This document shows positions 186 to 22,194 of a DNA stretch of 22,194 nt, in pieces. Made by a program: the position numbers and the translations under genes. Positions within the stretch are counted from its first letter, which is position 1, and each line of letters begins with the position of its first letter. The notes under the pieces were generated by a model. The model was not told where the DNA came from. It was given only the letters and a program-made list of their open reading frames with translations, and ran no database searches. The stretch comes from a virus. The stretch lies in UHGV virus genome UHGV-0136179. One strand, written 5' to 3'.

Positions 186-1166
186 TTATAACGTCACTCC
201 GCCTTTTAGAGGATTCAGCGCGACGGCATTTTGCAGGTAGTCAGGCGCAAGGTGCGCATAGGCCATCGTCTGCTGAATGCTCGCATGTCCCAGAATCTGT
301 TGCAGTGCGATTATATTGCCCCCATTCATCATGAAATGGCTTGCGAATGTATGCCGCAGGATGTGGGTTGCCTGATTGGGTGGTATATCTGGCTTCACTC
401 TGCGTAAAATCCCGCAAAACTTCTCATAATCAACTTTGAATAATTTAGCGCTGGCCTCCTCTTTAACTTTTTTCTCCAGTTCCTCAGAAATCGGCACGGT
501 TCGCTTTTTACCGTTTTTGGTTTTCAGGAAGGTAACCCTGCAATTTGTAATCTGTGCTGGTTTTAGCGTGGCAACTTCCGTCCATCTTCCTCCAGTGCTC
601 AGACATAAAAGTGCGACAAGTAAGTCATCACCATCCAAAACATTTAACAGTTTTTCGATTTCTGCTTTTTCCAGGAACGTCATTTCAGGGTTGGCCTCCG
701 CCAGTGGCGGCAGTCCGTGAATTGGGTGTTGCCCGGAAAATTCATCCAGTTGAATTAATTTTGTGAACATGCCGGATAATCGGTACATGTCACGGTTTAT
801 CGTTGCGGCACTGATACCATCACGTAGTCGCATGGAACGATAATCCATCAAAGCTCTTTTGTTCATCCGGCTCACTGGTATATCACCTATGCCGCTGATG
901 GTTTTGAGCAGATGATTAAACTCTTTTGTTCCATGCTCGTGGTTTTGCCCGTGATATTTCCACCAGATGTCCAGCAACTCACTCAAAGTTCTGCGATCTG
1001 CTCGCTGACCTGCCCATTCTTTCTGGCTGGCGTAGGCGATTGTGTATCGCTCAAATGCTACAGCCTCAGCTTTTCTTTCAAATTTCCTGCGGATGCGTTT
1101 TCCGTCGCGACCGCGAGGTCTAATGTCCACTTCATAGCGTCCATCATCGAGCTTCTTAATTGACAT
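186..1166 (-). CDS. int: Tyrosine integrase (P2/186 Int family)
   Basis: ORF 186-1196; start at 1166 (MSIKKLDD...) preferred because GAGGG lies 8 nt upstream, whereas the ATG at 1196 has no SD. C-terminal HILRHTFASH ... MAYAHL fits the tyrosine recombinase catalytic region. First gene beside the att arm, divergent from cox. Confidence 0.9.
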   Translation of the reverse strand: MSIKKLDDGRYEVDIRPRGRDGKRIRRKFERKAEAVAFERYTIAYASQKEWAGQRADRRTLSELLDIWWKYHGQNHEHGTKEFNHLLKTISGIGDIPVSRMNKRALMDYRSMRLRDGISAATINRDMYRLSGMFTKLIQLDEFSGQHPIHGLPPLAEANPEMTFLEKAEIEKLLNVLDGDDLLVALLCLSTGGRWTEVATLKPAQITNCRVTFLKTKNGKKRTVPISEELEKKVKEEASAKLFKVDYEKFCGILRRVKPDIPPNQATHILRHTFASHFMMNGGNIIALQQILGHASIQQTMAYAHLAPDYLQNAVALNPLKGGVTL

Positions 1167-1235
1167 AAGAAAGCCCTCTGACGCTGTATTCACCATCTTG
1201 GTAACAAATGGTGAAAATGTAATGTTTATAGAGTG

Positions 1236-3438: not shown

Positions 3439-3710
3439 GTATTAGTATTGAAATTGGCGAACGTTATGTCGTTACCAGTGACAGCTTTCAGTTTATTCTC
3501 CACGAGAAAAAGAGAGCTGAAAGCGGTAAAAACGCCGGTCAGGAATGGCTGGCGGTGGTTGGTTATTACCCGAAATTAAGCCAGCTCGTTTCCGGCCTGA
3601 TGCATCACGATATTCTGACCGGAAGCGCAAAGTCTTTTGCTGATTTAAACGCGCAGGTTGAGCAACTCAGCAAGCGTTGTTCAGAGGCTTTTGGCTCATA
3701 TGGCCGTTAA
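3435..3710 (+). CDS. Hypothetical early protein (orf83 position)
   Basis: 91-aa ORF, GGAGAA SD, overlaps the A start. Confidence 0.45.
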   Translation: MSISIEIGERYVVTSDSFQFILHEKKRAESGKNAGQEWLAVVGYYPKLSQLVSGLMHHDILTGSAKSFADLNAQVEQLSKRCSEAFGSYGR

Positions 3711-5967
3711 AGCCTCCGGGCGTTTTGTCCCTCCGTCAGTATTTGCCGCAGGCACCGGTGAGACGTTTACCGGTGCTTATGCATGGAACGCGCCACGCGA
3801 GGCCGTCGGGCGCGAAAGACCCCTTACACGTGACGAGATGCGTCAGGTGCAAGGTGTTTTATCCACGATTAATCGCCTGCCTTACTTTTTGCGCTCGCTG
3901 TTTACTTCACGCTATGACTACATCCGGCGCAATAAAAGCCCGGTGCACGGGTTTTATTTCCTCACATCCACTTTTCAGCGCCGTTTATGGCCGCGTATTG
4001 AGCGCGTGAATCAGCGCCATGAAATGAATACCGACGCGTCGTTGCTGTTTCTGGCAGAGCGTGACCATTATGCGCGTCTGCCGGGGATGAATGACAAGGA
4101 GCTGAAAAAGTTTGCCGCCCGTATCTCATCGCAGCTTTTCATGATGTATGAGGAACTCTGCGATGCATGGGTTGATGCACATGGCGAGAAAGAATCGCTG
4201 TTTACAGATGAGGCGCAGGCGCATCTGTATGGTCATGTTGCTGGCGCTGCACGTGCTTTCAATATTTCCCCTCTCTACTGGAAAAAATACCGTAAAGGAC
4301 AGATGACCACGAGGCAGGCATATTCTGCCATTGCCCGTCTGTTTAACGATGAGTGGTGGACTCATCAGTTTAAAGGCCAGCGTATGCGCTGGCATGAGGC
4401 GTTACTGATTGCTGTCGGGGAGGTCAATAAAGACCGTTCTCCTTATGCCAGTAAACATGCCATTCGTGATGTGCGTGCGCGCCGCCAGGCAAATCTGGAA
4501 TTTCTTAAATCGTGTGACCTTGAAAACAGGGAAACCGGCGAGCGCATCGACCTTATCAGTAAGGTGATGGGCAGTATTTCTAATCCTGAAATTCGCCGGA
4601 TGGAGCTGATGAACACCATTGCCGGTATTGAGCGTTACGCCGCCGCAGAGGGCGATGTGGGCATGTTTATCACGCTGACCGCGCCGTCAAAGTATCACCC
4701 GACACGTCAGGTCGGAAAAGGCGAAAGTAAAACCGTCCAGCTTAATCACGGCTGGAACGATGAGGCATTTAATCCAAAGGATGCGCAGCGTTATCTCTGC
4801 CGTATCTGGAGCCTGATGCGCACGGCATTCAAGGATAATGATTTACAGGTCTACGGTTTGCGAGTCGTCGAGCCACACCACGACGGAACGCCGCACTGGC
4901 ATATGATGCTTTTTTGTAATCCACGCCAGCGTAACCAGATTATCGAAATCATGCGTCGCTATGCGCTCAAAGAGGATGGCGACGAAAGAGGAGCCGCGCG
5001 AAACCGTTTTCAGGCAAAACACCTTAACCGGGGCGGTGCTGCGGGATATATCGCGAAATACATTTCAAAAAATATCGACGGCTATGCACTGGACGGTCAG
5101 CTCGATAACGATACCGGCAGACCGCTGAAAGATACTGCGGCGGCTGTTACCGCATGGGCGTCAACGTGGCGCATCCCGCAATTTAAAACGGTTGGCCTGC
5201 CGACAATGGGAGCTTACCGTGAGCTACGTAAATTGCCTCGCGGCGTCAGCATTGCTGATGAATTTGACGAACGCGTGGAGGCTGCACGCGCCGCCGCAGA
5301 CAGTGGTGATTTTGCGTTGTATATCAGCGCACAGGGTGGGGCAAATGTTCCGCGTGATTGCCAGACTGTCAGAGTCGCCCGTAGCCCGTCGGATGACGTT
5401 AACGAGTACGAGGAAGAAGTCGAGAGAGTGGTCGGCATTTACGCGCCGCATCTCGGCGCGCGTCATATTCATATCACCAGAACGACGGACTGGCGCATTG
5501 TGCCGAAAGTTCCGGTCGTTGAGCCTTTGACTTTAAAAAGCGGCATCGCCGCGCCTCGGAGTCCTGTCAATAACTGTGGAAAGCTCACCGGTGGTGATAC
5601 TTCGTTACCGGCTCCCACACCTTCTGAACACGCCGCAGCAGTGCTTAATCTGGTTGATGACGGTGTTATCGAATGGAATGACCCGGAGGTCGTGAGGGTG
5701 CTCAGGGGCGCATTAAAACACGGCCTGAGAACACCAAATCGTCAGCAAAGAAACGGAAGCCCGTTAAAACCACATGAAATTGCACCATCGGCCAGGCTGA
5801 CCCGGCCGGAACGATTGCAAATTACCCGTATCCGCGTTGACCTTGCTCAGAACGGTATCAGGCCTCCGCGATGGGAGCTTGAGGCGCTGGCGCGTGGGGC
5901 AACAGTAAATTATGACGGGAAAAAATTCACGTATCCGGTCGCTGATGAGTGGCCGGGATTCACATAA
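3700..5967 (+). CDS. A: Rolling-circle replication initiator gpA (HUH endonuclease superfamily)
   Basis: 755 aa from the ATG at 3700 (the ORF extends to 3658 via a non-ATG). HUH motif PHWHMMLF and tyrosine motif GYIAKYISKNIDGY are visible in the translation. Confidence 0.9.
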   Translation: MAVKASGRFVPPSVFAAGTGETFTGAYAWNAPREAVGRERPLTRDEMRQVQGVLSTINRLPYFLRSLFTSRYDYIRRNKSPVHGFYFLTSTFQRRLWPRIERVNQRHEMNTDASLLFLAERDHYARLPGMNDKELKKFAARISSQLFMMYEELCDAWVDAHGEKESLFTDEAQAHLYGHVAGAARAFNISPLYWKKYRKGQMTTRQAYSAIARLFNDEWWTHQFKGQRMRWHEALLIAVGEVNKDRSPYASKHAIRDVRARRQANLEFLKSCDLENRETGERIDLISKVMGSISNPEIRRMELMNTIAGIERYAAAEGDVGMFITLTAPSKYHPTRQVGKGESKTVQLNHGWNDEAFNPKDAQRYLCRIWSLMRTAFKDNDLQVYGLRVVEPHHDGTPHWHMMLFCNPRQRNQIIEIMRRYALKEDGDERGAARNRFQAKHLNRGGAAGYIAKYISKNIDGYALDGQLDNDTGRPLKDTAAAVTAWASTWRIPQFKTVGLPTMGAYRELRKLPRGVSIADEFDERVEAARAAADSGDFALYISAQGGANVPRDCQTVRVARSPSDDVNEYEEEVERVVGIYAPHLGARHIHITRTTDWRIVPKVPVVEPLTLKSGIAAPRSPVNNCGKLTGGDTSLPAPTPSEHAAAVLNLVDDGVIEWNDPEVVRVLRGALKHGLRTPNRQQRNGSPLKPHEIAPSARLTRPERLQITRIRVDLAQNGIRPPRWELEALARGATVNYDGKKFTYPVADEWPGFT

Positions 5968-6085
5968 ACTGAAATGAACAGCGTTGCAAGTGTGATAAAA
6001 ATCATTATACTGTTTTTATATACAGTACTTTAATCTGGAAAGATGCTATAAATGTATATTTCTATAAAAATATATGGTTTATTGA

Positions 6086-6114
6086 TTGTGTATGCTCACT
6101 ATCAAATTTATACT
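6086..6114 (+). promoter_or_regulatory. Candidate sigma-70 promoter for cargo locus 1 (-35 TTGTGT, 17-bp spacer, -10 TATACT)
   Basis: Lies in the A+T-rich spacer between the A stop and the cargo gene; hexamers only. Confidence 0.25.
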
Positions 6115-6244
6115 CCGCGCGCAATGTTGAGTATGCTTAAGATATAGCGTTTACAATTCCAGGCTTGAAGGCTCGGGTATAGGTAAAAATTGAGTGTTCT
6201 CGGTTGCTTTTCGTGACATAAGAGGACAGCAAAGGAGGTTGAGT

Positions 6245-6715
6245 ATGTACAGCCCATTGAACATCGCGAATAAGTTTATAGAACTTGCTTGCGCGGCTGG
6301 TATGCCAATCACCCAGATGCAGGCACAAAAGCTGACCTATATAGCACATGGTATAAATCTGGGTTACAAAGGCACGCCTTTGTTAACGACACCAGTTTGT
6401 GCATGGCGTTATGGTCCAGTGGTTCCAGTTCTGTATAACCATCTTAAAGTTTATGGCCGTAGTCCCATAACACAACCAATACAAGTTCCATCGGCAATTT
6501 CTCAGGAGTTTGACCCTATGACTGAGCAGTTGCTGCAGAACGTTTATAACGTTTACGGTAAATATACCGCTGAGGATTTATCTGCTTTCACACATCGTGA
6601 AGGTACTCCTTGGAAGCAAGCAATGGATAGTCGTATGGATATCATTCCTGATTCCGTTATTCAGGATTACTATCAAAAGCTGCTACACGGCGATAGCAAT
6701 TGCATCGGACTATGA
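6245..6715 (+). CDS. Panacea/DUF4065-like protein (candidate antitoxin or defence component)
   Basis: ATG at 6245 with perfect AAAGGAGG SD 6 nt upstream; 156 aa. Segment QKLTYIAHGINLGYKGTPLLTTPVCAWRYGPVVPVLYNHLKVYG resembles the DUF4065 core as I recall it (KLQKL.Y.A.G ... W..GPV.P..Y). Located in the A-Q variable slot. Confidence 0.5.
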   Translation: MYSPLNIANKFIELACAAGMPITQMQAQKLTYIAHGINLGYKGTPLLTTPVCAWRYGPVVPVLYNHLKVYGRSPITQPIQVPSAISQEFDPMTEQLLQNVYNVYGKYTAEDLSAFTHREGTPWKQAMDSRMDIIPDSVIQDYYQKLLHGDSNCIGL

Positions 6716-6730
6716 GTCCGAATTAAGATA

Positions 6731-6755
6731 ACCCCGTCTATGTACGGGGTTTTTT
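6731..6755 (+). terminator. Intergenic hairpin plus T6 between the two cargo genes
   Basis: Stem ACCCCGT (6731-6737) / ACGGGGT (6744-6750), 6-nt loop, T-run 6750-6755; the downstream ATG begins at 6756. Confidence 0.55.
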
Positions 6756-7328
6756 ATGCCTGACGATAATAAGAAAGTGACAGCTGAATTTGATAAAGAC
6801 CTTCTCAGACGATTGCAGCAAGCTGAGCAGAATCTGATAACTGCCTCTGCGGCTTTGGGAGATGAGGGCTGTTGGGATGAAGAATCTCATGAGCCTGAGT
6901 CTGTTGAGGACGCTGTTGATGAAATGCAAAAGGAAGAAGAGGATGCTGCGACCATGCAGCGTTTGGATTTATCCAGTCTTAATTTTCAAATTGCTGAATT
7001 GAGTCGCTGTGTTGAAACTATAAGCACTAACCTTGAAAGCGTACAGGCAGAAACCAAAAGAAAAAATGCGGAAACCGACGGCCTGCTTACGGACAATGAG
7101 CTCCGTAGAACTATGGCTGATAAAACATATCAATTCATGATTGTTTGGTGTTGTTTTGTCGGCTGGGTCATATTTATGTATGTATTGAAAAAAGATTTTG
7201 ATCCACCAGAAACAATTATCATTGCGCTTATGGGAACCACAACTGTGAGTATTGTGGGATTGGTTGGGTTTGTTGTTAGTGGTTTGTTCAAAAGCAACAA
7301 TAAACCTTCTGGCGACAATAAAAATTAA
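6756..7328 (+). CDS. Acidic coiled-coil protein with C-terminal two-helix membrane hairpin (candidate toxin/effector)
   Basis: 190 aa. Acidic N-terminus (EESHEPESVEDAVDEMQKEEEDA); hydrophobic segments FMIVWCCFVGWVIFMYVL and IIIALMGTTTVSIVGLVGFVVSGLF; A+T-rich. Start uncertain because it abuts the terminator T-run. Confidence 0.5.
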   Translation: MPDDNKKVTAEFDKDLLRRLQQAEQNLITASAALGDEGCWDEESHEPESVEDAVDEMQKEEEDAATMQRLDLSSLNFQIAELSRCVETISTNLESVQAETKRKNAETDGLLTDNELRRTMADKTYQFMIVWCCFVGWVIFMYVLKKDFDPPETIIIALMGTTTVSIVGLVGFVVSGLFKSNNKPSGDNKN

Positions 7329-16440: not shown

Positions 16441-16891
16441 GTTTAAGCGTTTTGAAGACCGGCTGACCGGACTGATTGAATCGCTGTCACCGTCAGGGCG
16501 TCGGCGACTGGCGGTAGATATTGCGAAGAAACTGCGCCAGCGCCAGCAGCAGCGAATTAAATTACAAAAAGGCCCGGATGGTACGCCGTATGTACCGAGA
16601 AAAAACCAGCCAGTGCGAAATAAGAAAGGCCGGATAAAGCGGGAAATGTTTGTGAAATTACGCACTAACCGGTTTATGAAAGCAACAGGTAGCGAGAGTG
16701 CGGCGGTGGTGGAGTTTGCCAGCGGAGTACAACGAATTGCGCGAGTACATCAATTAGGGCTTAGGGATAAGCCGGGGCGTAATAGTGCTGTGGTGGAATA
16801 TCCTGTTCGTGAGTTATTTGGTTTTGACAAGGAATCTATACAATTGATAGAAAGGGAGTTATTAGTGATTCTATCGAAAGATGTTATATGA
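16433..16891 (+). CDS. S: Tail completion protein gpS
   Basis: 152 aa (P2 gpS is 150 aa); the last ~50 codons become A+T-rich, suggesting the cargo junction lies inside the gene's 3' end. Confidence 0.8.
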   Translation: MNEFKRFEDRLTGLIESLSPSGRRRLAVDIAKKLRQRQQQRIKLQKGPDGTPYVPRKNQPVRNKKGRIKREMFVKLRTNRFMKATGSESAAVVEFASGVQRIARVHQLGLRDKPGRNSAVVEYPVRELFGFDKESIQLIERELLVILSKDVI

Positions 16892-17643
16892 GACGGGTGT
16901 TTGTGGATAAAAAGTTTTCCATTTTGAGAAAAAGAGTAAAGCATTCTCAAAAGAAAGTTATGGATTGTATTATTGCTGACCATAATGCTGATATATGTGT
17001 GTTATGCGGGAGTTCTGACGATATTACTCGTGAGCACATTATTCCTCAGTGGGCCTTTGAGTCAAATGCTGAAAAATCTTTAATTAATAAAAAGAATAAT
17101 CAGTCAACTCATTACATTAAAGCCACTGTACCAGCATGCAGAGTGTGCAATTCTGATTTGCTGGGAGTGTTTGAGTATAACTTGAAGAAATTTCTTACGG
17201 AAAAGAGGGGCGATGAGTTAACAGATTATGAATATGATTGCATCATATGGTGGTTGCAATACATGGGCTTTAAGTTGCAATTAATGGATTTACGGACCCG
17301 CTTTCTCAGGTATAAAGGGGGGGATTATATCCCTTTCCTTGCAAACTTCCCGGTTGCAATGTTTTGGGGGAATGTCGATACGACACCGGAGGATGTCTTC
17401 AGGATTATAAGAAAATCGCGACGCAATCTGATGTCGAAATGGAAGGATAAAAAACATAATTCTTTGATGGTTTTTGAAACATCAAACAAGAGTTTTCATT
17501 TCTTTCATAAGGTTGATGAATTTATTTTTATTGAAATGCCTCAGGTTAAGAAGGCGTTTTTCTTCTTTTTTAATAAAGAATTTGACAGCCATGATTTAGC
17601 TCATGAGGAGTGTATGAAGATTATAGAGAAGTACTACAACTAA
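16888..17643 (+). CDS. HNH-motif nuclease-like protein with uncharacterised C-terminal domain (cargo in the S-V slot)
   Basis: 251 aa. ATG overlaps the S stop (ATGA). Motif CVLCG-(x8)-EHIIPQW-(x)-CRVCN matches the HNH/His-Me finger pattern (CxxC ... [D/E]H..P ... CxxCN). Very A+T-rich against the GC-rich tail genes. Confidence 0.55.
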   Translation: MRRVFVDKKFSILRKRVKHSQKKVMDCIIADHNADICVLCGSSDDITREHIIPQWAFESNAEKSLINKKNNQSTHYIKATVPACRVCNSDLLGVFEYNLKKFLTEKRGDELTDYEYDCIIWWLQYMGFKLQLMDLRTRFLRYKGGDYIPFLANFPVAMFWGNVDTTPEDVFRIIRKSRRNLMSKWKDKKHNSLMVFETSNKSFHFFHKVDEFIFIEMPQVKKAFFFFFNKEFDSHDLAHEECMKIIEKYYN

Positions 17644-17720
17644 TATTTATTATGTTGTGTCACGGCTGACAGAGTCCTCCATGATTGCTGCTGGTATCGT
17701 CCGGCGGCATCCTTCCCGTC

Positions 17721-18356
17721 ATGAACACTCTCGCAAATATTCAGGAACTCGCGCGCGCACTGCGCAACATGATCCGCACCGGCCTTGTCGTCGAAACCAA
17801 CCTTAAAGCCGGTCGCTGCCGTGTGCAGACCGGCGGCATGTGCACCGACTGGCTTCAGTGGCTGACCTGTCGTGCCGGGCGTTCGCGCACATGGTGGGCA
17901 CCTTCCGTGGGGGAGCAGGTGCTGATTCTGGCCGTGGGCGGTGAACTTGACACGGCGTTTGTTCTGCCGGGGATTTATTCCGGCGATAACCCCGCGCCGT
18001 CTGCGTCGGCGGATGCCCTGCATATCCGTTTCCCTGACGGGGCGGTGATTGAGTATGAACCCGAAACCAGTGCACTGACGGTAAGCGGAATTAAAACGGC
18101 CAGCGTGACGGCTTCTGATTCTGTTACTGCCACGGTGCCGGTGGTCATTGTGAAAGCATCAACCCGCGTCACCCTGGACACACCGGAGGTGGTCTGCACC
18201 AACAGGCTGATTACCGGCACGCTGGAAGTGCAGAAGGGCGGGACGATGCACGGCAACATTGAACACACCGGCGGTGAACTCTCATCAAACGGTAAGGTAC
18301 TGCATACCCATAAACACCCCGGCGACAGTGGCGGCACAACAGGGGGACCTCTATGA
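17721..18356 (+). CDS. V: Baseplate spike gpV
   Basis: 211 aa from the ATG at 17721 (P2 gpV is 211 aa); the ORF extends to 17685 via a non-ATG. Confidence 0.9.
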   Translation: MNTLANIQELARALRNMIRTGLVVETNLKAGRCRVQTGGMCTDWLQWLTCRAGRSRTWWAPSVGEQVLILAVGGELDTAFVLPGIYSGDNPAPSASADALHIRFPDGAVIEYEPETSALTVSGIKTASVTASDSVTATVPVVIVKASTRVTLDTPEVVCTNRLITGTLEVQKGGTMHGNIEHTGGELSSNGKVLHTHKHPGDSGGTTGGPL

Positions 18357-18700
18357 CTGCGCGTTATCTCGGAATGAATCGCAGTGATGGCCTGACTGTC
18401 ACTGACCTTGAGCATATCAGCCAGAGTATCGGCGATATCCTGCGCACACCGGTCGGCTCACGGGTGATGCGTCGTGATTACGGCTCGTTGCTGGCATCAA
18501 TGATTGACCAGCCGCAGACCCCGGCGCTTGAGTTGCAGATTAAGGTCGCCTGTTACATGGCGGTGCTGAAATGGGAACCCCGCGTCACCCTGTCATCCGT
18601 CACCACTGAACGCAGTTTTGACGGGCGAATGACTGTCACTTTGACCGGCCAGCACAACGACACCGGCCAGCCACTTTCGTTAACCATCCCTGTGAGTTGA
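18353..18700 (+). CDS. W: Baseplate wedge protein gpW
   Basis: 115 aa (P2 gpW is 115 aa); ATGA overlap with V. Confidence 0.85.
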   Translation: MTARYLGMNRSDGLTVTDLEHISQSIGDILRTPVGSRVMRRDYGSLLASMIDQPQTPALELQIKVACYMAVLKWEPRVTLSSVTTERSFDGRMTVTLTGQHNDTGQPLSLTIPVS

Positions 18701-18704
18701 AACC

Positions 18705-19613
18705 ATGCCGATTATCGACCTGAACCAGCTACCCGTACCGGATGTGGTCGAGGAGCTGGACTTTGAAACCATTCTTGCCGAACGCAAGGCGACACTGATT
18801 TCCCTTTACCCGGAAGACCAGCAGGAGGCGGTCGCCCGTACCCTGACGCTGGAATCCGAGCCTCTCGTCAAACTGCTGGAGGAAAATGCTTATCGTGAGC
18901 TTATCTGGCGTCAGCGTGTGAATGAGGCCGCACGGGCGGTAATGCTGGCCTGTGCCGCCGGTAATGACCTTGATGTGATTGGTGCCAATTACAACACCAC
19001 GCGCCTGATTATCACCCCGGCAGATGATTCGACCCTCCCGCCGACACCGGCAGTGATGGAATCTGACACGGATTATCGTCTGCGTATTCAGCAGGCGTTT
19101 GAAGGTTTAAGCGTCGCCGGGTCGGTGGGGGCCTATCAGTATCATGGTCGCAGTGCCGACGGGCGTGTCGCGGATATTTCTGTCACCAGTCCGTCTCCGG
19201 CCTGCGTCACCATCTCTGTGCTGTCACGTGAAAATAACGGTGTCGCATCCGAAGACCTGCTGGCGGTGGTGCGTAACGCCCTTAATGGCGAGGACGTCAG
19301 GCCGGTGGCCGACCGCGTGACCGTGCAGTCTGCCGCCATCGTTGAATACCAGATAAACGCCACGCTTTACCTTTACCCTGGTCCCGAAAGCGAACCCATA
19401 CGCGCTGCTGCCGTGAAAAAACTGGAAGCGTACATCACGGCACAGCACCGGCTGGGGCGTGACATCCGTCTGTCTGCCATTTATGCCGCTTTGCATGTGG
19501 AAGGCGTGCAGCGTGTCGAACTGACTGCACCGCTGACCGACATCGTGCTCAACAGTACGCAGGCGTCTTTCTGTACCGAATACCGCGTCGTGACCGGAGG
19601 CTCGGATGAGTGA
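18705..19613 (+). CDS. J: Baseplate protein gpJ
   Basis: 302 aa (P2 gpJ is 302 aa). Confidence 0.85.
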   Translation: MPIIDLNQLPVPDVVEELDFETILAERKATLISLYPEDQQEAVARTLTLESEPLVKLLEENAYRELIWRQRVNEAARAVMLACAAGNDLDVIGANYNTTRLIITPADDSTLPPTPAVMESDTDYRLRIQQAFEGLSVAGSVGAYQYHGRSADGRVADISVTSPSPACVTISVLSRENNGVASEDLLAVVRNALNGEDVRPVADRVTVQSAAIVEYQINATLYLYPGPESEPIRAAAVKKLEAYITAQHRLGRDIRLSAIYAALHVEGVQRVELTAPLTDIVLNSTQASFCTEYRVVTGGSDE

Positions 19614-20136
19614 TTCGCGACTGCTGCCGACCGGCTCATCACCGCTTGAAATTGCTGCCGCAAAAGCCTGTGCGGAAATTGAAAAAACGCCGGTCAGGAT
19701 TCGTGAACTGTGGAACCCGGATACCTGTCCGGCAAATCTGCTGCCGTGGCTGGCGTGGGCGTTTTCGGTCGACAGGTGGGATGAAAAGTGGCCGGAAGCG
19801 ACAAAACGCGCCGTTATCCGCGATGCCTATTTCATCCACTGTCATAAGGGCACTATCGGTGCAATCCGGCGTGTGGTGGAGCCGCTCGGCTATCTCATCA
19901 ACGTGACGGAGTGGTGGGAAAACAGTGACCCGCCAGGCACCTTCCGGCTTGATATTGGTGTACTGGAAAGCGGCATCACAGAGGCAATGTATCAGGAAAT
20001 GGAACGGCTGATTGCTGATGCCAAACCTGCAAGCCGCCACCTTATCGGCCTGAACATTACCCGGGACATTCCCGGCTACCTGTTCGCCGGTGGTGTGGCT
20101 TACGACGGCGATGTAATTACGGTTTACCCCGGATAA
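19606..20136 (+). CDS. I: Baseplate protein gpI
   Basis: 176 aa (P2 gpI is 176 aa); overlaps the J 3' end. Confidence 0.85.
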   Translation: MSDSRLLPTGSSPLEIAAAKACAEIEKTPVRIRELWNPDTCPANLLPWLAWAFSVDRWDEKWPEATKRAVIRDAYFIHCHKGTIGAIRRVVEPLGYLINVTEWWENSDPPGTFRLDIGVLESGITEAMYQEMERLIADAKPASRHLIGLNITRDIPGYLFAGGVAYDGDVITVYPG

Positions 20137-20146
20137 GTGAGGAATA

Positions 20147-22192
20147 ATGAGCACAAAATTCAGAACCGTTATCACCACTGCCGGTGCAGCAAAGCTGGCA
20201 GCGGCAACCGCACCGGGAGGGCGGAAGGTCAACATTACCACGATGGCCGTCGGGGATGGCGGTGGTAAATTGCCTGTCCCGGATGCCGGACAGACCGGGC
20301 TTATCCACGAAGTCTGGCGACATACGCTGAACAAAATCAGCCAGGACAAACGAAACAGTAATTATATTATCGCAGAGCTGGTTATTCCGCCGGAGGTGGG
20401 CGGTTTCTGGATGCGTGAGCTTGGCCTGTACGATGATGCGGGAACGTTAATTGCCGTGGCGAACATGGCTGAAAGTTATAAGCCAGCTCTTGCCGAAGGC
20501 TCAGGGCGTTCGCAGACCTGCCGCATGGTCATCATCGTCAGCAGTGTGGCCTCAGTGGCGCTGACCATTGACACCACAACGGTGATGGCAACGCAGGATT
20601 ACGTTGATGACAAAATTGCAGAACATGAACAGTCACGACGTCACCCGGACGCCTCGCTAACCGCCAAAGGTTTTACTCAGTTAAGCAGTGCGACCAACAG
20701 CACGTCTGAAACACTCGCCGCAACACCAAAAGCGGTAAAAGCAGCATATGACCTTGCTAACGGGAAATACACTGCACAGGACGCCACCACAGCGCGAAAA
20801 GGCCTTGTCCAGCTCAGTAGTGCCACCAACAGCACGTCTGAAACGCTCGCCGCAACACCAAAAGCCGTTAAGACGGTAATGGATGAAACGAACAAGAAAG
20901 CGCCATTAAACAGCCCTGCACTGACCGGAACGCCAACGACGCCAACTGCGCGACAGGGAACGAATAATACTCAGATCGCAAACACGGCTTTCGTTATGGC
21001 CGCGATTGCCGCCCTTGTAGACTCGTCGCCTGACGCACTGAATACGCTGAACGAGCTGGCGGCGGCGCTGGGCAATGACCCGAATTTTGCTACCACCATG
21101 ACTAATGCGCTTGCGGGTAAGCAACCGAAAGATGCCACTTTGACGGCGCTGGCGGGGCTTGCTACTGCGGCAGACAGGTTTCCGTATTTTACGGGGAATG
21201 ATGTTGCCAGCCTGGCGACCCTGACAAAAGTCGGGCGGGATATTCTGGCTAAATCGACCGTTGCCGCCGTTATCGAATATCTCGGTTTACAGGAAACGGT
21301 AAACCGAGCCGGGAACGCCGTGCAAAAAAATGGCGATACCTTGTCCGGTGGACTTACTTTTGAAAACGACTCAATCCTTGCCTGGATTCGAAATACTGAC
21401 TGGGCGAAGATTGGATTTAAAAATGATGCCGATGGTGACACTGATTCATACATGTGGTTTGAAACAGGCGACAACGGCAATGAATATTTCAAATGGAGAA
21501 GCCGTCAGGGCACCACAACAAAAGACCTGATGAATCTTAAATGGGATGCTTTGTCTGTCCTTGTTAAAGCCCTTTTCAGCAGTGAAGTAAAAATATCGAC
21601 AGTCAATGCACTGAGAATCTTTAATTCATCCTTTGGTGCTATTTTTCGCCGTTCTGAAGAATGCCTGCATATTATCCCCACACGAGAGAATGAGGGGGAA
21701 AATGGTGATATCGGGCCACTACGCCCCTTTTCGTTGAATCTCAGAACTGGTCGCATAACTATGGGGCACGCTCTGGATGTTACAGGAGATATAACAACTA
21801 ACGCATGGGTGTACGCAAACCGCCTTGCAATTAACAGCAGCACAGGCATGTGGATTCATATGCGTGACCAGAATGTTATTTTTGGACGTAATGCGGTATC
21901 CACTGATGGTGCTCAGGCTTTGCTCCGTCAGGACCATGCCGATCGCAAATTTATGATTGGCGGTCTGGGAAATAAGCAATTTGGCATCTACATGATTAAT
22001 AACTCAAGGACAGCCAATGGCACCGATGGTCAGGCATACATGGATAATAACGGTAACTGGCTTTGTGGTTCGCAAGTTATTCCCGGCAACTATGGCAATT
22101 TTGATTCCAGATATGTGAAAGATATTCGACTTGGTTCACTGCGTATTTTCATGAAAGGAGATCACTCAATAACTTCCATCGAGATCGGGTAA
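20147..22192 (+). CDS. H: Tail fibre protein gpH
   Basis: 681 aa (P2 gpH is 669 aa); GAGGAA SD; internal tail-fibre repeats; C-terminal third is A+T-rich. Stop codon is at 22190-22192. Confidence 0.85.
   Translation: MSTKFRTVITTAGAAKLAAATAPGGRKVNITTMAVGDGGGKLPVPDAGQTGLIHEVWRHTLNKISQDKRNSNYIIAELVIPPEVGGFWMRELGLYDDAGTLIAVANMAESYKPALAEGSGRSQTCRMVIIVSSVASVALTIDTTTVMATQDYVDDKIAEHEQSRRHPDASLTAKGFTQLSSATNSTSETLAATPKAVKAAYDLANGKYTAQDATTARKGLVQLSSATNSTSETLAATPKAVKTVMDETNKKAPLNSPALTGTPTTPTARQGTNNTQIANTAFVMAAIAALVDSSPDALNTLNELAAALGNDPNFATTMTNALAGKQPKDATLTALAGLATAADRFPYFTGNDVASLATLTKVGRDILAKSTVAAVIEYLGLQETVNRAGNAVQKNGDTLSGGLTFENDSILAWIRNTDWAKIGFKNDADGDTDSYMWFETGDNGNEYFKWRSRQGTTTKDLMNLKWDALSVLVKALFSSEVKISTVNALRIFNSSFGAIFRRSEECLHIIPTRENEGENGDIGPLRPFSLNLRTGRITMGHALDVTGDITTNAWVYANRLAINSSTGMWIHMRDQNVIFGRNAVSTDGAQALLRQDHADRKFMIGGLGNKQFGIYMINNSRTANGTDGQAYMDNNGNWLCGSQVIPGNYGNFDSRYVKDIRLGSLRIFMKGDHSITSIEIG
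20677..20874 (+). repeat. Tandem 132-bp (44-codon) duplication inside H, encoding QLSSATNSTSETLAATPKAVK twice
   Basis: About 60 bp near-identical at 20681-20742 and 20813-20874 with a 132-bp offset; resembles the phage tail-fibre repeat. Confidence 0.7.
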
Positions 22193-22194
22193 TA

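Follow-up and report, generated by a model that had tools for sequence, protein, structure and literature searches.

Evidence that the tail-fibre gene H of a P2-like prophage is a mosaic interrupted by ISEc12

Main finding

The region described here is very probably gene H, which encodes the mosaic tail fibre of a P2-like (Peduovirus) prophage and in which a repeat and an A+T-rich tip, both of them traits of the family, are followed by a cut that the insertion sequence (IS) ISEc12 has made at codon 665. It is a known kind of gene and not a new one, since its repeat is Pfam family PF03406 and its drop in GC content is found in P2 H as well. As we read it, the gene would be built of four parts: an N-terminal domain of P2 type, which would fix the fibre to the baseplate; a shaft with two copies of a common phage tail-fibre repeat; one 26-bp site that is a homologue of Gin/Cin-type invertase crossover sites; and, at the distal end, an A+T-rich module belonging to the Mu S / P7 Sv' family, which would bind the host surface.

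The prophage and its gene H

The window, by which we mean the whole stretch of 22,194 nucleotides that was analysed, is the left two thirds of a P2-like prophage, with the integrase at one end, the tail-fibre gene at the other, and the replication, head, lysis and baseplate genes in between. It shows 97% nucleotide identity to phages R18C, Wphi and P2 over 83–88% of its length, and its backbone is classed by sequence as P2-type (Peduovirus) and not P88-type. The features on which the following account depends are these:

186–1196, minus strand: integrase gene, in the left part of the window
20147–22192, plus strand: H open reading frame (ORF), the last of the window; 681 aa, open throughout
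20147–22139, plus strand: native H coding sequence, codons 1–664 plus one base
20147–20599, plus strand: N-terminal tail-collar / baseplate-attachment domain, aa 1–151; Pfam PF12571, E 7.7e-60, profile positions 1–150 of 150

The original prediction had H start at 20677, but the ORF actually begins at 20147. Upstream of it, the ORFs at 17685–18356, 18353–18700, 18705–19613 and 19606–20136 complete the synteny V-W-J-I-H, and each of the products of the baseplate genes V, W, J and I carries a Pfam name on the source contig. Two further Pfam families are recognised in H itself, namely PF03406 (Phage_fiber_2), which matches in two stretches with 138.5 bits against a cut-off of 22 (E 5e-41), and the fibre trimerisation domain PF21446 at aa 419–528. 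H thus shares with P2-type gpH both the PF12571 domain and the place after V, W, J and I in the late operon. It departs from gpH in that its C-terminal end is incomplete: the native sequence ends at 22139 and the IS comes next, with the assembly gene G, expected after H, lying beyond both the window and the source contig.

Native H has 96.7% nucleotide identity to P2 H over 20147–21549 (the first 1403 nt), and 99–100% identity throughout to the 724-aa H of the prophage of Escherichia coli CFSAN061770 (WP_032139880.1). No RNA family was recognised when the entire window was compared with Rfam. Within 19500–22194 no terminator-like site was found, and promoter-like sites were not commoner there than by chance.

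The distal receptor-binding module and its crossover site

The distal part of H is set apart by its homologies, and a putative recombination site lies at its proximal edge:

21270–21295, plus strand: single gix/cix-like 26-bp invertase crossover site TTATCGAATATCTCGGTTTACAGGAA; 23 of 26 bases match Mu gix TTATCCAAAACCTCGGTTTACAGGAA, with 0 such sites expected by chance
21296–22139, plus strand: receptor-binding module of the Mu S / P7 Sv' type, low in GC (44.8%) and with a truncated 3' end, recognised by protein and nucleotide homology
21550–22139, plus strand: part of the module without a homologue in P2 H (38–49% nucleotide identity to P2 H)

When the native C-terminal 290 residues of H were compared with the proteins of phage records, the amino-acid identities were as follows:

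P88: 96%
PhiR68_1 (Mu-like): 91%
SfMu, copy in the unexpressed orientation: 89%
P7 Sv': 89%
Mu S: 72%
P1 S: 70%
P2 H: 87%, over the first 115 residues only

At 89–96% amino-acid identity the module is found in phages of three kinds, namely P88 (P2-like), SfMu and PhiR68_1 (Mu-like), and P7 and RCS47 (P1-like), which supports the earlier proposal that the A+T-rich end of the gene can be exchanged and serves in receptor binding. From the crossover site onward, the distal part also shows the homology that characterises the variable module of Mu S, P1 S and P7 Sv'. The tail-fibre genes of P2, Mu and P1 are reportedly related, according to a 1992 paper on the P2 genes. The intact homologue of H matches the solved tail fibre S of Mu (PDB 5YVQ, which holds Mu S with its assembly protein) over aa 375–723 with an E value of 1e-150, the central part, aa 478–580, being the least conserved. 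By analogy with Mu, the receptor of the module is probably lipopolysaccharide. Among 5,426 complete E. coli genomes, 359 hold at least 80% of window positions 21300–22194, that is, of nearly all of the low-GC part together with the IS end.

The C-terminal part had been expected to depart from P2 H, and this was borne out for its distal portion and not for its proximal one. Up to about 21546 the two genes are colinear, with 90–100% nucleotide identity; beyond that point identity falls to 38–49%, and in a BLASTP comparison the proteins have in common only a 36-aa motif around GNFDSRYVKD(I/V)RLG. To judge by these homologies, the module has been exchanged horizontally, and its distal tip is a different cassette from that of P2, given the low identity and the single common motif after about 21549. 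P2 gpH (NC_001895 P2p20) otherwise resembles the gene studied here in its N-terminal domain, its two repeat copies, its gix-like site, its GC drop and the V-W-J-I-H order, but it is complete, with 669 aa, and the motif by which the unrelated tips are linked lies near the C-terminal end. The H genes of E. coli P2-like prophages, such as that of CFSAN061770, are 99–100% identical over the native part, but they are intact at 724 aa, have the tail-fibre assembly gene directly after them, and contain no IS. The variable parts of Mu S, P1 S and P7 Sv', which are encoded in the invertible segments G and C, are homologues of the distal module; here, unlike there, the module is fused to an N-terminal part of P2 type, with neither a second site nor an invertase gene in view.

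The site at 21270–21295 retains an intact right half-site and an intact central TC. It aligns with the site of the SfMu G segment, and homology to SfMu begins exactly there, beside gin; in the P1-like phage P7 the shared part begins further inside Sv' and not at the site. From the homologous site within the fibre gene of P88 it differs by one base.

P88 itself offers an instructive locus (L009, positions 3537–6633), where two inverted gix-like sites flank the fibre tip, two assembly genes and an alternative tip. An invertase gene adjoins the second site, and SfMu likewise has a partner site and an invertase gene. The P88 locus shows that a P2-type fibre gene can take a switchable form. P88 (Xuanwuvirus, P2-like) shares with the present phage the module at 96% amino-acid identity, the crossover site inside the fibre gene and the fibre-repeat module, but it differs in having three copies of the repeat, a diverged N-terminal part (61–79% nucleotide identity), a further, inverted site, an alternative tip that comes with an assembly gene for itself, and the invertase gene.

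Up to its end within the IS, the window contains a single gix-like site and no invertase gene. One alternative is that the low-GC module lies in an active invertible segment as in P88, so that the tip seen here is one of two. Its appeal lies in the near identity of the crossover site to the one inside P88 H, which does have an inverted partner and an invertase gene, and in the 96% identity of the modules. We nevertheless consider it quite unlikely. No invertase gene was found in the two closest intact relatives; CFSAN061770, the closest intact prophage in which sites were counted, has one site. These relatives, 99–100% identical across H, show the gene order H, assembly gene, cargo, sheath gene, and the backbone is P2-type, 97% identical to R18C, Wphi and P2, and not P88-type. 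The reading we prefer is that, although Mu-like, P1-like and some P2-like phages keep the module inside an invertible segment, it would be held here, as in P2, in one fixed orientation.

The lone site may still have a small chance of serving as a substrate for Gin-, Cin- or Pin-type invertases supplied in trans by co-resident elements, a suggestion that stems from its intact right half-site and central TC and from its single-base difference to the presumably active site of P88. The anatomy of the gene, its homologies and the IS junction are observed, unlike the mechanism of module exchange, which we infer.

The end of the gene at ISEc12

The 3' end of the ORF is formed by two adjoining features:

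22135–22139, plus strand: predicted 5-bp ISEc12 target site TTCAC, proposed from the duplications of the reference copies; a second copy would be expected at the right end of the element
22140–22194, plus strand: left terminus of ISEc12 (IS21 family), which agrees at 55/55 nt with copies inserted in unrelated genes

The 681-aa ORF had been regarded as a complete H, which is not borne out. Its codons 665–681 (LRIFMKGDHSITSIEIG, 17 codons) and the stop at 22190–22192 are IS sequence, and the last 60 native residues (QQYYGVNNWQTWNFQCPSGHVLSGINVQDTGSNSADNIAGVYYRPVQKYINGTWYNVASV) are absent, intact homologues having 724 aa and ending in ...RPVQKYINGTWYNVASV. Alignment places the junction between H and the IS at 22139|22140, at the TG that opens the element. 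Complete E. coli genomes match the window at 99.6–99.8% up to 22142 and then diverge, and the last 55–62 nt of the window occur in thousands of places.

From two reference copies the ends of ISEc12 were defined as TGCGTATTTTC ... GGTAATACGCA, with the 5-bp target duplications GTCAC and TTTAC. A start of the IS at about 22133, suggested by similar flanks in several copies, was rejected after the ends and duplications had been defined in these two references. The three copies examined lie in a tape-measure gene, in a DUF5983 gene and beside a restriction-modification locus, with istA and istB next. In the reference copies istA, istB, the right end and the 5-bp duplications can all be seen, whereas here the left end alone is visible. 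The source contig, a k141 metagenome contig of 48,394 bp (MEGAHIT, short-read), continues for 88 more nucleotides that are identical to ISEc12 and then ends, so that 143/143 IS nucleotides are identical in all; a contig end within an IS is the usual assembly break at a repeat.

The three target sequences are alike (TTCAC, GTCAC and TTTAC) and hint at a preference for (G/T)T(C/T)AC, as far as the three sites inspected can tell. They are located at window positions 22135–22139, at L003 3006–3010 and 5594–5598, and at L004 near 3006 and 5590.

That the junction might be an assembly chimera, in which an intact H was joined to an IS end with no insertion at all, has to be weighed in view of the kind of contig, a MEGAHIT k141 assembly that stops 143 nt into a multi-copy repeat, and in view of the rarity of the junction, which occurs in none of the 5,426 complete E. 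coli genomes and whose exact 40 nt had no match in a search of one genome per species. Such a chimera seems very improbable, however. The join coincides to the base with the start (TG) of the IS terminus, it is flanked by TTCAC, a sequence similar to the GTCAC and TTTAC that are duplicated around other copies, and the same 681-aa fusion protein is recorded, letter for letter, on three contigs; moreover, a k-mer chimera needs about 141 nt in common, and H and the IS have no such overlap. An insertion into H is the reading that we retain.

Base composition along H

H had been described as more A+T-rich from about 21330, and this is confirmed: instead of remaining uniform, GC content changes from 55.3% over 20147–21269 to 44.8% over 21296–22139, with the best change point at 21323 (z = 4.8), and the boundary lies directly after the gix-like site. 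An equal drop at the equal place is found in the H genes of P2, P88 and CFSAN061770. The step from this drop to a difference from P2 consequently fails, as P2 H has the same drop and is 90–100% identical across 21296–21549.

Could the drop reflect the amino-acid or structural constraint of a beta-rich tip domain and not a horizontal origin? GC at the first and second codon positions does fall, from 0.57 to 0.49 (GC1) and from 0.52 to 0.43 (GC2), and the module has a low GC content in every homologue. The largest decrease, however, is at the third position (GC3), from 0.57 to 0.42, which means that the shift is not an amino-acid effect only. Besides, the module starts at a recombination site and recurs at 84–99% nucleotide identity in the otherwise unrelated backbones of Mu-like, P1-like and P2-like phages, which makes constraint alone a highly improbable source of the drop and favours horizontal exchange.

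The tandem repeat

The tandem duplication of a 44-codon module at an offset of 132 bp, which had been pointed out before, was recovered both by a repeat search and by an offset scan of the protein:

20648–20779, plus strand: fibre-repeat module, copy 1; 44 codons, with Pfam PF03406 spanning aa 170–210
20780–20911, plus strand: fibre-repeat module, copy 2; 44 codons, with PF03406 in two stretches

The repeat search reported one family of direct repeats in H (20647–20739 against 20779–20871, 93 nt, 77% identical, spacing 132). In the ungapped BLOSUM62 self-comparison, the score reaches 128 at an offset of 44, whereas 30 shuffles gave a mean of 36.4 (sd 5.0) and no value above 52. None of the remaining offsets is conspicuous, and nothing else in H is repeated. 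Tandem Repeats Finder reported no array in H, the two copies at 66% nucleotide identity being below its threshold, and a self-BLASTP of H returned the diagonal only. In codon register the copies agree at 28/44 amino acids and 87/132 nucleotides, and clear repetition is limited to about 31/44 codons. Their 21-aa core QLSSATNSTSETLAATPKAVK, at 20678–20740 and 20810–20872, is identical in protein although 8/63 nucleotides differ, all of them synonymously, a pattern that points to an old duplication kept by selection and not to a recent one.

As a feature of this particular phage the duplication does not hold, since both copies are present in P2 H too, at identical residue positions (179 and 223), and the module is PF03406. 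Copy number in H is one in P2 isolate SIAC10, two in P2 and here, and three in P88, and by these comparisons the repeat is a family trait of variable copy number that has already been catalogued as PF03406. The variation from one to three copies among relatives would presumably arise by unequal recombination. The loci compared are L001 3001–5022, L006 1501–3510 and L009 2273–4567, and between close P2-like relatives the length of the fibre shaft differs by steps of 44 residues.

A complete 681-aa H with a native stop, a lineage-specific duplication and a new low-GC tip that changes host range relative to P2, which is how the gene was originally read, is by now hardly credible: it is true that the ORF spans 20147–22192 without interruption, that H has the repeat and the GC drop, and that the distal 590 nt are unrelated to P2 H, but the stop and the 17 preceding codons are ISEc12 sequence, intact homologues extend 60 residues further, and P2 H shares the repeat copies and the GC drop, so that on sequence evidence the parts of that reading concerning the gene end and the lineage-specific duplication are refuted.

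Predicted consequences of the insertion

In the course of events that we propose, ISEc12 would have transposed into codon 665, whereby the last 60 residues would have been lost and the 681-aa ORF would have arisen as a fusion ending in the IS. About 2.4 kb of IS should then separate H from the downstream fibre-assembly gene. Assembly is said to begin at the C-terminal region of the fibre, as put forward in a 2019 structure paper. In Mu, the assembly protein attaches to the fibre, promotes its trimerisation and is retained at the fibre tip. Assembly of the present fibre should fail because its last 60 residues are lost and H is separated from the assembly gene; by homology to Mu, the fibre is most likely not assembled and probably non-functional, in a prophage that would probably yield no infectious particles. 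With a fibre that is probably non-functional, this copy would have no host range to compare with that of P2.

The other late genes in the window are all open and of normal length, and for this reason the insertion looks recent. As the data come from a short-read metagenome assembly, an intact allele of H may coexist in the same sample.

Low-GC cargo genes elsewhere in the window

Low GC content is also a property of genes outside H. The lowest in the window, about 36%, belongs to a 251-aa ORF at 16888–17643 (plus strand), placed between the tail-completion gene S and the baseplate gene V, which is the orf30 slot of P2; related prophages have other genes in this slot. The ORF belongs to phrog_10503 (unknown function), with R18C as its sole carrier among 50,697 phage records, and it has 45 clusters of homologues, nearly all from Enterobacteriaceae. 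Its invariant residues C37, C40, E49, H50, C84, C87 and N88 suggest an HNH-like nuclease motif. It had no PADLOC match and no Pfam match above the cut-off, and a comparison of its AlphaFold model (pLDDT 77) with solved structures gave no informative match.

Two further low-GC cargo genes are located at 6194–7328 (plus strand), between the replication gene A and the portal gene Q, in the tin/old slot of P2. The product of the first, 173 aa long, contains a SocA/Panacea antitoxin domain (PF13274, E 7e-18); that of the second, 190 aa long, is acidic in its N-terminal half and hydrophobic at its C-terminal end. We read them as a putative toxin-antitoxin pair of Panacea type; neither had a PADLOC match.

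Implications

The finding has little importance beyond annotation, for which it carries some lessons. As this case illustrates, the stop codon of an ORF that closes at the edge of a contig may come from an insertion sequence, and a shift in composition within a tail-fibre gene may belong to the family as a whole and not be peculiar to one phage. For host-range prediction or fibre engineering, the intact 724-aa form should be used and not the 681-aa fusion, and the module boundary at the gix-like site offers a natural fusion point for chimeric fibres. If the lone site were indeed used by invertases in trans, this would explain why a module of 89–96% amino-acid identity starts at this site in both P2-like and Mu-like backbones, and receptor-binding cassettes could then move among P2-like, Mu-like and P1-like prophages by site-specific and not homologous recombination.
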